Below, in pieces: positions 9,796-46,814 of a stretch of 64,000 nucleotides of DNA. The notes below the pieces were generated by a model. It saw only the letters and a program-made list of their open reading frames with translations. It was not told the DNA's origin and ran no database searches. The stretch lies in sequence record OL770073.2, one strand, 5' to 3'. The DNA comes from Escherichia phage vB_EcoM-RPN226. Position numbers and translations under genes: made by a program. Each line of letters starts with the position of its first letter. Position 1 is the stretch's first letter.

Positions 9796-9875
9796 TGAGT
9801 AATTTCCACAACGAACACGTGATGCAGTTCTATCGTAACAATCTTAAAACCAAAGGCGTCTTCGGACGCCAGTGA
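9795..9875 (+). CDS. stp: Stp peptide (activator of host PrrC anticodon nuclease)
   Basis: 26-aa [29 protein letters not shown]; ATG overlaps the ndd stop. Confidence 0.85.
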
Positions 9876-9882
9876 GGAAAAT

Positions 9883-10035
9883 ATGAAATTTGTTTATGGC
9901 ATAGCCTTTTTCTGTTGGTCCTTTTTATGCATCGGAACAGTAATAACTGGAGAAACTTCAGTATTTTTACAAGCAACAGCTCAAGGCGTATTAGCGGTTT
10001 TATCATTGTTTTGGCTATTAGATAAAAATGATTAA
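9883..10035 (+). CDS. small membrane protein (ac position)
   Basis: 50-aa hydrophobic ORF immediately after stp. Confidence 0.45.
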   Translation: MKFVYGIAFFCWSFLCIGTVITGETSVFLQATAQGVLAVLSLFWLLDKND

Positions 10036-10168
10036 GAAAATCTTGGGCTATTCATTAGCCCTTGCTGCTTTATTGGTAGCACTATATTACGGAATAATGT
10101 TCGGATTAATTCAAGTCGTGCTTTTCATTTCTGATGTTATTATGGCACTACATTCACTAGTATGGTAA
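10028..10168 (+). CDS. small membrane protein
   Basis: 46-aa hydrophobic ORF. Confidence 0.4.
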   Translation: MIKKILGYSLALAALLVALYYGIMFGLIQVVLFISDVIMALHSLVW

Positions 10169-10172
10169 ATTT

Positions 10173-11501: not shown

Positions 11502-11647
11502 GTCCATTCATTGGTATTACAAGCGCTGCATTAGTATCTGGCAGCATTTTACTGGCGGGTTTAGGTGTTGTTCCAGCCGTAGCAGGAGGTCTTCTTGCGT
11601 TCGGAATTCAACGTGTTATCATGACAGTTATCACAGTCATGCAGTAA
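11498..11647 (+). CDS. small membrane peptide
   Basis: 49-aa hydrophobic ORF; ATGA overlap with the gene 52 stop. Confidence 0.4.
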   Translation: MSPFIGITSAALVSGSILLAGLGVVPAVAGGLLAFGIQRVIMTVITVMQ

Positions 11648-11652
11648 TTTTA

Positions 11653-11680
11653 GGGAGAGCCTCGGCTCTCCCTTTTTTTA
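11653..11680 (+). terminator. intrinsic terminator
   Basis: GGGAGAGCCTCGGCTCTCCC hairpin plus T7 tract. Confidence 0.75.
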
Positions 11681-11705
11681 TTTCAAAAATTTTTTCACAA
11701 AACGG

Positions 11706-11734
11706 TTTACAACCAAAGCATACTGTGGTACTAT
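11706..11734 (+). promoter_or_regulatory. T4-type early promoter
   Basis: TTTACA, 17-bp spacer, TACTAT, conserved leader. Confidence 0.65.
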
Positions 11735-11775
11735 ACAACTATCAAATACTGATACAGAATTACGGAGATTAGAAA

Positions 11776-43944: not shown

Positions 43945-44000
43945 ATGCTTTAAGAATTATTTGTTATTATTAATTCATCTGTTAACAAAAAGGAAAAATG

Positions 44001-44336
44001 ATGTCTGAAGTACAACAGCTACCAATTCGTGCTGTCGGTGAATATGTTATTTTAGTTTCTGAACCTGCACAAGCCGGTGATGAAGAAGTTACAGAATCAG
44101 GACTTATTATCGGTAAACGTGTTCAAGGTGAAGTTCCTGAACTGTGTGTAGTTCACTCTGTTGGTCCTGATGTTCCTGAAGGTTTCTGCGAAGTTGGTGA
44201 TTTGACTTCTCTTCCAGTTGGTCAAATTCGAAACGTTCCGCATCCTTTTGTAGCTCTGGGTCTTAAGCAGCCAAAAGAAATTAAACAAAAATTCGTTACC
44301 TGTCACTATAAAGCTATTCCGTGTCTTTATAAGTGA
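44001..44336 (+). CDS. 31: co-chaperonin gp31 (GroES analogue)
   Basis: 111 aa from [40 protein letters not shown]... Confidence 0.9.
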
Positions 44337-44483: not shown

Positions 44484-44732
44484 ATGATTAAACAATTACA
44501 ACACGCTCTTGAACTGCAACGAAACGCATGGAATAATGGTCACGAAAACTATGGCGCATCTATTGATGTTGAAGCCGAAGCTCTTGAAATCCTGCGTTAT
44601 TTCAAACATCTGAATCCTGCTCAAACTGCACTAGCTGCTGAGCTTCAGGAAAAAGATGAACTTAAATATGCTAAGCCTCTGGCTTCTGCTGCACGAAAAG
44701 CAGTTCGTCACTTTGTGGTAACACTGAAGTAA
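44484..44732 (+). CDS. rIII: rIII lysis-inhibition accessory protein
   Basis: 82 aa; MIKQLQHALELQRNAWNNGHENYGASIDVEAEALEILRYFKHLNPAQTALAAELQEK... Confidence 0.85.
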   Translation: MIKQLQHALELQRNAWNNGHENYGASIDVEAEALEILRYFKHLNPAQTALAAELQEKDELKYAKPLASAARKAVRHFVVTLK

Positions 44733-45130
44733 TTTATTGGAGATTCACTGCCTTAGTGTGAGCTAAAATCGAGGAGCCGTCGAACTGTCTGATTAATGAT
44801 TTGCGAATCATTATAGTTTTAAGACCCCGGCAGTTTTACGGTGTACCTCTTGAATGTTATTCTTATAGCGGCAAGTGCATGCTACCCCGAGGTGATGGCC
44901 AATCGGGAGTACGCCTCAAGTCCTATATATCCATCAGTATATATCTTATCCTCGAGAAATCGAACCCGGAACCTTTAAGCTAACGGTGTGCAACAGATAA
45001 GAGCTATAAGGTATGATGACGGGTTTATGGTTATCCTGGTCGTTAAATATTCAAAAACCTATGTTCCCCTTGAGGGCTTGCGCAGGCAATGCCAATAAGT
45101 CCTGCATTTTCATTTAAAAGAGAATTTATA

Positions 45131-45307
45131 ATGGCAAAACAAGCTAAAGCAAAGAAAGCAGTTGAAAAGAAAGTTGGTGATTCTAAACGCGCTGGTTACA
45201 AGCGTGGGTCGAACTCTCGTATCAATCAAACTGTTGAGAAGATCATGCGCCGAGCACGTGCGGTTCTTCGAGATGATGCTTCTCGTTTTGGTAAGCAGAA
45301 AGCATAA
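45131..45307 (+). CDS. small basic protein
   Basis: 58-aa Lys/Arg-rich ORF followed by a strong terminator. Confidence 0.45.
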   Translation: MAKQAKAKKAVEKKVGDSKRAGYKRGSNSRINQTVEKIMRRARAVLRDDASRFGKQKA

Positions 45308-45310
45308 GTT

Positions 45311-45340
45311 AAGGACTCCTTCGGGAGTCCTTTTTTATTT
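45311..45340 (+). terminator. intrinsic terminator
   Basis: AAGGACTCCTTCGGGAGTCCTT hairpin plus T6 tract. Confidence 0.75.
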
Positions 45341-45362
45341 TCCAAAGATTTGCATAAAGTTG

Positions 45363-45391
45363 TTTACAGTATAGTTCCTTTGTGATAGTAT
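45363..45391 (+). promoter_or_regulatory. T4-type early promoter
   Basis: TTTACA, 17-bp spacer, TAGTAT; GGAG RBS before the ATG at 45419. Confidence 0.55.
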
Positions 45392-45418: not shown

Positions 45419-45679
45419 ATGAAAACGATTAATCTGAACGCCACAGTTAAAACTAAATGCTTCAATGGTAAATATGATGAAACTATGTGGTTCTTAATGG
45501 CAGTTGAAGGTGATATTATTGAAGTAGCGATCCAAAACAGGGGCTTTCGTGATGCATTACAAGCCTCGAAAGGAAAAGTTTTGAAGCACAGCATGGCTAG
45601 TTGTCTAACAAAAGATGATACAATACTAACCGAAGCTGAATTTATTGATGTGTTAAACCTATTAAGAGACTCTCTATGA
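45419..45679 (+). CDS. hypothetical protein
   Basis: 86-aa ORF. Confidence 0.5.
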   Translation: MKTINLNATVKTKCFNGKYDETMWFLMAVEGDIIEVAIQNRGFRDALQASKGKVLKHSMASCLTKDDTILTEAEFIDVLNLLRDSL

Positions 45680-46548
45680 AGCCAACTATTTTAACTGATA
45701 TTGATGGAGTATGTTTAAGCTGGCAATCAGGCCTTCCTTATTTTGCTCAGAAATATAATCTTCCGTTAGAACATATTTTAAAAATGATCCAAGATGAGAA
45801 ATTTATTTCTCCAGGTAAACTCTTTAATTGTGATGAAGAACTTGGCGTCAAGTTAATTGAAAAATATAATCGATCAGATTTTATTCGTTACTTGTCTCCA
45901 TATAAAGATGCTCTGTGTGTAATTAACAAATTAAAAGAAGATTATAATTTTGTAGCTGTTACAGCACTGGGTGATTCTATTGACGCTCTGTTGAATCGTC
46001 AATTTAATTTGAATGCTCTTTTTCCTGGTGCCTTTTCAGAAGTACTGATGTGTGGTCATGATTCTTCAAAAGAAGAGTTGTTCAAAAAGGCAAAAGAGAA
46101 ATATAACGTAATTTGTTATATTGACGATCTCGCTCACCACTGCGATCACGCGAGTGAAATATTAAATGTTCCAGTTTATTGGATGGCTCGAGGAGAGCGT
46201 GACAGTATTCCAAAAACTGCACAGCGAGTTTATACATGGAATGATGTAGAAAATAAGCTTTTTTCGCCGAAGGAAAATAAAGAAAGTTTTGATAGTGAAA
46301 AAGCTATAAAAGATGTAATTGAGAAGATGGTTAAAAACGATTCTTTTCCTTGGAACACTACCTGGAGAACACCTGGATTTAATCCGTATAATCCATATTA
46401 TACACATCCATATAATCCATATAATCCATATTATACACACCCGTATCATATGAATCCATTCCATACGTGGAGTTATACTAAGCCTGGTGATGCAGGGTAT
46501 TTTAATAGATTTACTAGTGGTGATAATATTTTCCAAGGAGCATTCTAA
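45676..46548 (+). CDS. HAD-like hydrolase with C-terminal Tyr/Pro-rich repeat tail
   Basis: 290 aa; N-terminal DIDGV motif; C-terminal NPYNPYYTHPY repeats. Confidence 0.55.
   Translation: MKPTILTDIDGVCLSWQSGLPYFAQKYNLPLEHILKMIQDEKFISPGKLFNCDEELGVKLIEKYNRSDFIRYLSPYKDALCVINKLKEDYNFVAVTALGDSIDALLNRQFNLNALFPGAFSEVLMCGHDSSKEELFKKAKEKYNVICYIDDLAHHCDHASEILNVPVYWMARGERDSIPKTAQRVYTWNDVENKLFSPKENKESFDSEKAIKDVIEKMVKNDSFPWNTTWRTPGFNPYNPYYTHPYNPYNPYYTHPYHMNPFHTWSYTKPGDAGYFNRFTSGDNIFQGAF
46381..46446 (+). repeat. tandem 2 x 33-bp coding repeat built from AATCCATAT 9-mers
   Basis: AATCCGTATAATCCATATTATACACATCCATAT followed by AATCCATATAATCCATATTATACACACCCGTAT. Confidence 0.8.
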
Positions 46549-46724
46549 TGTTTGTCGTTCACACTATTTATGAAAATGAAGGTAATACTACACGTGATTA
46601 CGGTCACGTAAATCAATTTTTTAGATGCAATCCAGAATTCCGAGCTCAAAAAGACGAACGAATTTTTAAAAAAATGTGTAGAGCAAGGTTTCATTTACGT
46701 CAAGCACTGGATGCAAGGAAATAA
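46548..46724 (+). CDS. hypothetical small protein
   Basis: 58-aa ORF. Confidence 0.4.
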   Translation: MFVVHTIYENEGNTTRDYGHVNQFFRCNPEFRAQKDERIFKKMCRARFHLRQALDARK

Positions 46725-46814
46725 AGTTAGAACTACATATCATAAGTCTTTGCCTGAGCTTAATGATGAATTGATTTATAATAGAGCTGTAAACCAAACC
46801 TTGAAGGATGAGTA

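Follow-up and report, generated by a model that had tools for sequence, protein, structure and literature searches.

The stretch of DNA analysed here (the window) comprises 64,000 nucleotides (nt) of Escherichia phage vB_EcoM-RPN226 (sequence record OL770073.2), a T4-type (Tequatrovirus) phage. It carries gene 31 at 43998-44336 on the plus strand and, further along the same strand, rIII and a homologue of 30.9. The spacer between these last two genes runs from the rIII stop at 44732 to the 30.9 ATG at 45131 and measures 398 bp (44733-45130). In this Tequatrovirus it is a non-coding chain of plus-strand RNA structure modules, the central one being a conserved element of about 150 nt. An earlier note, made from the sequence alone, had placed the boundaries of this gap correctly, and had proposed that it holds a structured non-coding RNA, a decayed tRNA-like or mobile-element remnant, or horizontally acquired DNA. 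Three features frame the analysis:

44484-44732, plus strand: rIII coding sequence (list of open reading frames; counterpart of T4 rIII in the annotated T4 record and close relatives)
44862-45010, plus strand: conserved structured RNA element (covariance-model match at 44856-45018; model R1)
45131-45307, plus strand: homologue of 30.9, a basic protein of 58 amino acids (aa), phrog_1427 (list of open reading frames, T4 annotation, PHROG match)

The gap had been described as poor in open reading frames (ORFs) and rich in G+C, and both descriptions hold. The minus strand of 44733-45130 has no ORF of at least 30 aa, and the plus strand has one TTG-started ORF of 60 aa (44801-44983) and some shorter ones, nothing credible. 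The G+C enrichment is real, though modest: a windowed analysis gave 41.7% for the gap, compared to a mean of 35.8% (standard deviation 3.5%, 398-bp windows), and only 4.9% of windows reach this value. The central 152 nt have 45.4% G+C (top 2.7%); rIII and gene 31 are also at 42 to 43%. The two G+C-rich strings given as examples were located at 44868-44915 and 45066-45093.

Structure and covariation of the element

Model R1 has its sole match in the window at the element (183 bits, E = 3e-38). The fold, of about 150 nt and eight helices, is a four-way junction without linker bases: P1, P1a, P4 and P2 adjoin directly, with zero unpaired bases between them. The P1a-P3 arm bears a conserved internal loop. 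The parts of the element, all on the plus strand, are as follows:

44862-44869 with 45003-45010, plus strand: P1, closing helix, variable
44870-44872 with 44921-44923, plus strand: P1a (element model)
44873-44880, plus strand: invariant unpaired block AAGnGCAU, 5' side of the P1a/P3 internal loop
44881-44893 with 44898-44914, plus strand: P3, with two bulges
44921, plus strand: T replacing the G of other members, giving a C·U mismatch with 44872 in P1a of this phage's copy
44924-44930 with 44937-44943, plus strand: P4, plain hairpin arm
44944-44950 with 44996-45002, plus strand: P2, third arm, opening into a three-way junction (P5, P6)
44952-44955 with 44960-44963, plus strand: P5, with a GAAA loop in this phage
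44964-44968 with 44984-44989, plus strand: P6, U44987 bulged
44969-44994, plus strand: invariant blocks GAnCC (44969-44973), GCUAA (44979-44983), bulged U44987 and GCAAC (44990-44994), in the P6 loop and the P6/P2 joiner

Across 27 distinct members, to which the two rows of invariant blocks also refer, 26 unpaired bases are invariant; most of them belong to the P1a/P3 internal loop, to the surroundings of the P6 loop or to the P6/P2 joiner. Members differ from one another in P1, in P5 and in the loops of P3 and P4. Such a pattern is what one usually sees in RNAs that have a specific tertiary core, and for an RNA with so many invariant unpaired bases a specific tertiary structure or a binding site is almost certain. 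The 18-mer GCTAACGGTGTGCAACAG occurs once in the window, even when up to three mismatches are allowed, with 0.01 occurrences expected. A column-pair scan for tertiary pairings or pseudoknots inside the element returned clade-driven noise only, the candidate bases being invariant. The P6 loop (CUUUAA) was also considered as a mimic of the tRNA-Lys anticodon loop and rejected, this stretch being the variable part of the loop.

The helices are carried by covariation. Members were collected from annotated records of Kanagawavirus, Karamvirus, Muldoonvirus, Slopekvirus, Pseudotevenvirus and one Grimontviridae phage, from IMG/VR and from metagenomes. A model of 46 pairs was written out and then tested on three alignments. 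In a plain MAFFT alignment of 25 sequences (A5), 94.5% of the pair cells are paired and 28 of the 46 pairs show compensatory changes; none of 500 shuffles matched these values, and sliding the 3' partners by one to three columns lowered pairing to 28 to 42%. Alignment to the model of 29 distinct sequences (A6) gave 96.5% of cells paired and 29 of 46 pairs compensatory. Two divergent members, loci L077 and L083, were added after a model search with filters off, and the resulting model-based alignment of 27 distinct sequences (A8) gave 96.1% and 35 of 46, with at least one compensatory pair in each of the eight helices. For these two covariance-model alignments again, 0 of 500 shuffles were as good, and slid partners paired in 27 to 42% of cells. 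RNAalifold, run on 21 sequences, arrived independently at the same helices (44 pairs predicted, 20 with compensatory changes). This support is comparable to that of many accepted RNA families.

The strand can be read from the wobble pairs. Among 1334 pair cells there are 76 G·U or U·G and 0 A·C or C·A, and the structure therefore forms on the plus strand, which is also the coding strand of rIII and 30.9. The molecule is most naturally taken to be RNA, plus-strand single-stranded DNA being formally possible. The structured non-coding RNA proposed at the outset is thus strongly supported, by covariation and not by folding energy, and for the central 150 nt and a smaller downstream pseudoknot only. 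We have very little doubt that this plus-strand structured RNA is real and conserved, and that it represents a new family.

The copy in this window departs from the others at one place. The pair between 44872 and 44921 (columns 18 and 75 of A8) is C-G in 25 sequences, U-A in one (L077, compensated) and unpaired in one, that of this window. Either the T at 44921 is a sequencing error or the mutation is genuine, in which case it possibly weakens the fold.

Coding potential, relatives and history

A small protein gene (the 60-aa ORF at 44801-44983) or a decayed tRNA gene could be supposed here from the presence of that ORF in the window, from GenBank records in which ORFs at this place are annotated as 'hypothetical protein', and from the string GGTTCGATT on the minus strand, noticed earlier for its likeness to a T-loop. 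Either has next to no chance of being correct. As a gene the ORF is refuted by the comparative data: its frame has extra stops in 17 of 29 members, and no reading frame across the element is open in more than 8 of the 29. Core lengths range from 122 to 134 nt, with differences that are not multiples of three, and a change from GGCCAA to GGCUAA keeps a G·U pair in P3 while creating an in-frame TAA. In Pfam, the 60-aa ORF has no family at threshold, the only hit being a sub-threshold one to DUF6207 (E = 0.33). Public records also label some ORFs across the gap '1,4-alpha-glucan branching enzyme, GH-13-type'; like those called hypothetical, they are almost certainly spurious.

The tRNA-like remnant fares no better. 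ARAGORN finds 0 tRNA and 0 transfer-messenger RNA (tmRNA) in the whole 64-kb window, and Rfam has no tRNA-clan match in the gap at E up to 10. The T-loop-like string is indeed present, but it is the complement of 44957-44965, that is, of the 3' arm of P5 and the start of P6. In relatives it becomes GGTCCGATT, GGTCTGATT or GGTCCATTT, and by the G·U statistics it lies on the strand opposite to the structure. We take it for a chance look-alike. Brief sequence matches to the RNase P RNA and the tmRNA of E. coli (one 10-mer, a few 7-mers) were at chance level, and this candidate was dropped.

The Rfam search that had been suggested was carried out, and its outcome is consistent with an undescribed RNA. 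None of the 4227 models of Rfam 15 matches 44733-45130 at E up to 10, and none reaches its gathering threshold anywhere in the window. In six other member loci, including the divergent JC221, K41P2, Citrof4 and PKM.Lu.22.1, none falls on the element at E up to 5. The best near-match of the region, Atu_C8 at 45263-45346 (32.5 bits, below threshold), corresponds to the intrinsic terminator after 30.9. Host sequences gave a similar picture: BLASTN of the element against 5,426 E. coli genomes had no match at E up to 10, plasmids had two chance 30-nt matches only, and a pattern search of 185,579 bacterial and archaeal species genomes (GTDB) had none. The searchable literature holds no description of such an RNA or of its signature sequences, although an early mention is still possible. 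As far as Rfam 15 and that literature show, the element is a previously undescribed RNA family.

The stable RNAs rnaC and rnaD of T4 (species 1 and 2 RNA) are encoded in the tRNA cluster, are 119 to 139 nt long, and their function is still not known. They share with the element the condition of small structured RNAs of the T4 group; they differ by their locus and show no resemblance by eye, and model R1 has no match in the T4 tRNA/rnaC/rnaD region (L032). A broader parallel is offered by the orphan structured RNA motifs detected in bacteria and phages by comparative genomics (Weinberg et al. 2017, PMC5737381). Like the element, these motifs have conserved junction and loop blocks, compensated helices, an ORF-free, G+C-richer spacer as their setting, and a function that is not known; all of them have been deposited in Rfam, whereas the element matches none of its models.

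The element was found in 406 to 433 phage records, at one place per record. The hosts belong to Escherichia, Shigella, Klebsiella, Enterobacter, Citrobacter, Salmonella, Yersinia, Serratia, Raoultella, Erwinia and Edwardsiella, and one phage was reported on Aeromonas. Among 47 rIII loci of IMG/VR, 20 have the element, always on the plus strand and directly after rIII. Model searches likewise gave a single copy per source, with none elsewhere in the window and none in the T4 loci. Across genera the element is 80 to 91% identical, compared to 58 to 75% for gene 31 and rIII and 68 to 90% for 30.9, so that it outdoes the neighbouring protein genes in conservation.

Three genomic contexts were distinguished. 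The first is the rIII-30.9 locus. In the second, found in Slopekvirus (JC221, K41P2) and Pseudotevenvirus (Citrof4), the element comes after the uvsY block, in the same orientation, and is convergent with uvsW. The third occurs in PKM.Lu.22.1, a Grimontviridae phage of 76 kb, where a gene of unknown function (phrog_6599) is followed by the element, a hairpin, a canonical terminator and a sigma-factor gene. The element has thus changed its locus and has also entered an unrelated phage family. An association with a particular gene was sought and rejected, since the neighbours in the three contexts have no family in common. What is constant is the orientation: the element is always in the sense direction, directly 3' of the stop codon of the upstream gene. 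In Merlin-type phages it begins 3 nt past the rIII stop, which leaves no room for a promoter of its own, and a sigma-70 scan of the gap found no promoter. The structure is under strong purifying selection on the plus strand, in single copy, and independent of any particular neighbour.

Its place directly behind stop codons, down to 3 nt in Merlin-type phages, might suggest a passive 3' structure that stabilises the messenger RNA (mRNA) of rIII, or of whichever gene lies upstream, against 3' exonucleases. We consider this very unlikely: a simple hairpin would suffice for such a role, and the 26 invariant unpaired bases and the complex junction are left unexplained. The upstream genes, moreover, vary with the context, and T4 manages without the element.

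In the Slopekvirus uvsY-uvsW spacer (L009, 1260-1640; L030, 1260-1485), about 250 to 400 nt of further ORF-poor sequence follow the element, with a strong bidirectional terminator at the end. This sequence is conserved between JC221 and K41P2; it may contain more structured RNA, or the element may there be the 5' domain of a longer RNA.

To approach the history of the locus, the window was set against T4 and other phages. When 50,697 phage records were searched with the gap by BLASTN, 993 had matches, of which only 179 cover at least 80% of it. In T4, T2 and most relatives the gap is matched in two pieces, and the T4 spacer is only 244 bp. Relative to T4 (...CTCTTGAATGT-GAA-TGATGACGGG...), the window carries about 150 nt extra (TATTCTTATAGC...GCTATAAGGTA). 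T4, T2 and some three quarters of T4-type genomes lack the element, and model R1 has no match on the T4 loci; the flanking modules are kept in T4 on both sides, almost unchanged. In Klebsiella phages of the Jiaodavirus type the extra segment is present just after rIII with 93 to 95% identity, in flanks that are otherwise unalignable. T4-type phages show several different deletion forms. Since many genera have the element at the rIII locus, deletion is the best reading of its absence from T4-type phages; here it seems to be ancestral and to have been lost by T4.

The BLASTN comparison with T4, T2 and E. coli that had been recommended therefore found the element in none of them, and the idea of a mobile or horizontal origin stands in part. 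In its favour are the insertion-deletion difference from T4, the second locus and the one unrelated 76-kb phage; the single copy, the lack of ORFs, the lack of host homologues and the ancestral appearance speak against it. The stronger version, in which the conserved object is a DNA-level element (a miniature transposon, a homing or recombination site, or a single-stranded DNA structure acting in replication or recombination), appears highly improbable. It would account for the presence/absence polymorphism with sharp boundaries, for an 8-bp terminal inverted repeat (CTTATAGC/GCTATAAG) and for the vicinity of the recombination genes uvsY and uvsW at the second locus, and single-stranded DNA also tolerates G·T pairs. 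However, every record has one copy per genome, no target-site duplication is seen at the T4/window junction, and no nuclease or transposase gene is associated with the element. The 'terminal repeats' differ among lineages yet stay complementary, which is the covariation of a helix and not a transposase site, and compensatory changes run through the internal helices with a G·U bias strictly of one strand.

The last 33 nt or so of rIII (44700-44732, compared with L004, 2350-2382) are near-identical between Tequatrovirus and Jiaodavirus, the whole genes being about 75% identical. This could reflect a protein constraint or an overlapping RNA or DNA signal.

Other modules of the spacer

Around the element, the spacer holds five smaller modules:

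44740-44770, plus strand: small hairpin module GGAGAUUCACUGCCUUAGUGUGAGCUAAAAU, stem CACU/AGUG (conserved in T4)
44771-44852, plus strand: extended imperfect hairpin of the rIII 3' region, capped by an 8-bp stem (44794-44801/44806-44813, loop UGCG) and followed by UAGUUUU (inverted repeat I4; minimum free energy and centroid fold)
45018-45063, plus strand: D1, H-type pseudoknot, stem 1 GAC..GG / CC..GUC, the loop pairing with sequence past a conserved A-rich linker GUUAAAUAUnCAAAA (alignment A9)
45066-45077, plus strand: D2, small G+C hairpin CCCC-UUGA-GGG, then CUUGCG (by eye)
45082-45115, plus strand: D3, hairpin GCAGG...CCUGC, then AUUUUCAUUU (terminator-like, with a U-rich tail), just 5' of the 30.9 ribosome-binding site (sequence)

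The first module is homologous by eye to AGGUGAUACGCUACCUUAAGUGCGAAGCUAAAAU, which precedes the element in L077 and follows it in JC221 and PKM.Lu.22.1. A hairpin or mini-pseudoknot of about 30 nt, of the AGGUGAUnCGCUACCUUAAGUGCGAAGCUAAAAU type (44740-44770; L077, 1150-1185; L009, about 1245-1275; L034, about 1045-1075), changes its position before or after the element as if shuffled. Part of this module (44742-44770) resembles a repeat of the type I-F CRISPR (clustered regularly interspaced short palindromic repeats) system at 19 of 28 positions, which we take to be a coincidence. As a repeat mimic, that is, an RNA anti-CRISPR, it was rejected: the arms of the repeat's Cas6 hairpin are not complementary here, the L077 homologue is less repeat-like, and Rfam gives no CRISPR-DR match.

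The second module contains the perfect hairpin that the earlier note had singled out; the hairpin exists, but with 8 pairs rather than 10 (TAATGATT at 44794-44801, AATCATTA at 44806-44813, loop TGCG). The folding energy of the whole module (z = -1.7) is not significant alone, and its near-identity in T4 means that it yields no covariation information.

D1 is the smaller pseudoknot mentioned above. In alignment A9, pairing reaches 87% of its cells, compared to 33 to 52% in slid controls, and compensatory changes are seen at 8 of 11 pairs. Stem 2 covaries across lineages (UUGUGAG/CUCACAA, GGUAGU/ACUACU, GAUGG/CCAUC), and is reduced to GGUU/AACC in this window. D1 is also present in T4 and in loci L005, L007, L020, L026, L077 and L083, and the rIII-30.9 spacer of T4 thus probably holds an undescribed pseudoknot. 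D2 recurs past the element in nearly all lineages, with variants that compensate by eye (CCCUUAGGGG, CCCGAAAGGGG, CCCCUUGUGGGG); in PKM.Lu.22.1 the canonical terminator stands at the corresponding place. At the position of D3 other lineages have a different hairpin, and a terminator scan did not call D3.

Among phages, the modules of the gap recur around the element in differing combinations and orders. Beyond 30.9, an intrinsic terminator (45311-45332 and a T-run) is followed by an early promoter (45363-45391), in an ordinary terminator-promoter cassette. Modular shuffling of this kind has been described in T4-type genomes for promoter-stem-loop (PeSL) cassettes (PMC2839356, PMC4122927). The spacer resembles PeSL shuffling in being a mosaic of small modules found in varying orders and loci, and the terminator and early promoter at 45311-45391 are PeSL-like. 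The element itself, unlike PeSLs, has no promoter motif and is far larger and more complex than a stem-loop; the two PeSL papers make no mention of rIII, 30.9 or LZ9.

Possible functions and the surroundings of the element

In T4 infection, rIII and its neighbours are transcribed in the direction of the element. We infer that the element would be co-transcribed as part of rIII-containing transcripts and fold autonomously. It would then act as a self-contained module, and not as a regulator dedicated to rIII or 30.9: its conserved tertiary core would bind a partner that Enterobacterales hosts share, be it a small molecule, a host protein or a host RNA machine. The autonomy of the module is suggested by its independence of context, its move to an unrelated phage, its conservation above that of the flanking genes and its frequent loss in laboratory lineages. 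Given a patchy, dispensable distribution, transfer between loci and phage families, and extreme conservation, the function may be an accessory one, in host takeover or counter-defence. Taken as a whole (spacer modules, new RNA family, autonomous partner-binding module), this is the explanation that we favour, with moderate confidence; the mode of action of the element is the more tentative part of it.

Several points weigh against this explanation. The pattern of invariant unpaired bases is the sole ground on which partner binding is inferred. The copy in this window, with its C·U mismatch at 44872/44921, might be impaired. Folded as a single sequence, the element has an ordinary energy (z = -1.6). 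The relatedness of the sequences, and the fitting of two of the alignments to the model, inflate the covariation counts; nevertheless, since the MAFFT alignment and the slid controls agree, fitting is not the source of the signal. Lastly, terminator-like hairpins often trail the element, and PKM.Lu.22.1 has a true terminator and a gene behind it, which keeps a cis role possible.

Such a role is the main rival explanation. The element would be a cis-acting regulator, either a riboswitch-like sensor or a processive antiterminator or attenuator, controlling the passage from rIII to 30.9 and beyond, with the downstream hairpins as expression platform. The constant sense orientation within a transcription unit is in keeping with it, as are the hairpins that commonly follow, some with U-rich tails (here 45082-45115), the arrangement of canonical terminator and then sigma-factor gene after the element in PKM.Lu.22.1, and the clustering of invariant unpaired bases, which resembles an aptamer core. 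The aptamers of riboswitches such as SAM-I (a four-way junction) and cyclic-di-GMP-I are built on multi-helix junctions, and share with the element a size of about 120 to 150 nt, a variable P1 and invariant bases in junctions and loops. Unlike them, the element lies 3' of a gene and not in a 5' leader, and has neither coherent downstream genes nor a recognisable conserved expression platform. It is followed by 30.9 in one context and by a sigma factor in another; in the remaining one, no co-oriented gene is annotated ahead of the convergent uvsW block. T4-type phages keep D1-D3 nearly unchanged without the element, which argues that these hairpins are not a dedicated expression platform. The next hairpin follows the element at distances between about 6 and more than 50 nt, and no convincing alternative pairing of the 3' strands of P1 or P2 with a terminator was seen by eye.

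For antitermination, the closest known case is that of the put RNAs of phage HK022, cis-acting RNAs of about 70 nt with two stem-loops that make RNA polymerase resistant to terminators. In common with put, the element is a phage-encoded structured RNA of an early transcription unit, placed before terminator-like hairpins and needing no adjacent phage protein gene. It differs in having no similarity to put in sequence or structure, and one of its contexts has no co-oriented downstream gene. On this evidence we think a cis-acting regulator unlikely.

A serious third possibility, less probable again, is a self-cleaving ribozyme or RNA-processing element of a new class, which would cut the polycistronic transcript between genes. 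Small self-cleaving ribozymes typically have no gene association, variable peripheral helices and a strict core, and occur in phage genomes; the element shows these traits, with its context independence and conserved core. With its linker-free four-way junction, two arms of which have conserved loops, it is reminiscent of the natural hairpin ribozyme found in plant satellite RNAs, a perfect four-way junction with conserved internal loops in two adjacent arms. In both, the two loop-bearing adjacent arms could dock. Unlike the hairpin ribozyme, the element has no sequence similarity to loops A and B and no Rfam match, and one of its loop-bearing arms is a three-way junction. No ribozyme family of Rfam 15 matched the gap at E up to 10, no signature of a catalytic core is recognisable, and about 150 nt is above the size of most small self-cleaving classes.

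It is conceivable, if doubtful, that the element is the first example of a functional class of phage RNA that is new, be it a self-cleaving ribozyme or a portable high-affinity aptamer or decoy of Enterobacterales phages. An aptamer or decoy might soak up a host immune signalling nucleotide, or occupy an RNA-binding or RNA-cleaving factor of host defence or takeover, and would then do as RNA what 'sponges' and decoys do as proteins. Knowing what the element binds or does could bring to light a new means by which phages manipulate enteric hosts, or a fold that is new among ribozymes or aptamers. That the element was overlooked in the much-studied T4-type genomes can be explained by its deletion from T4, T2 and most laboratory relatives. 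Phages that have the element and phages that lack it both occur in nature and amount to isogenic-like pairs, which makes its function directly testable. In practice, the covariance model adds a new RNA family to phage annotation, and flags ORFs called across the element as probably spurious.

Elsewhere in the window, stretches of 266 to 377 bp free of ORFs on both strands (none reaching 60 aa) also occur at 9796-10172, 11502-11775 and 46549-46814. Downstream of 30.9, an ORF of 86 aa (45419-45679) matches the gp30.8 family at its N-terminus and the gp30.3 family at its C-terminus (Pfam), and looks like a fusion of two T4 genes by deletion or recombination. The next ORF (45676-46548, 290 aa) has a DIDGV motif at its start, HAD-like by eye, and C-terminal PYNPYNPYYTHPY repeats; its counterpart in a Klebsiella relative is annotated as a 5' nucleotidase.

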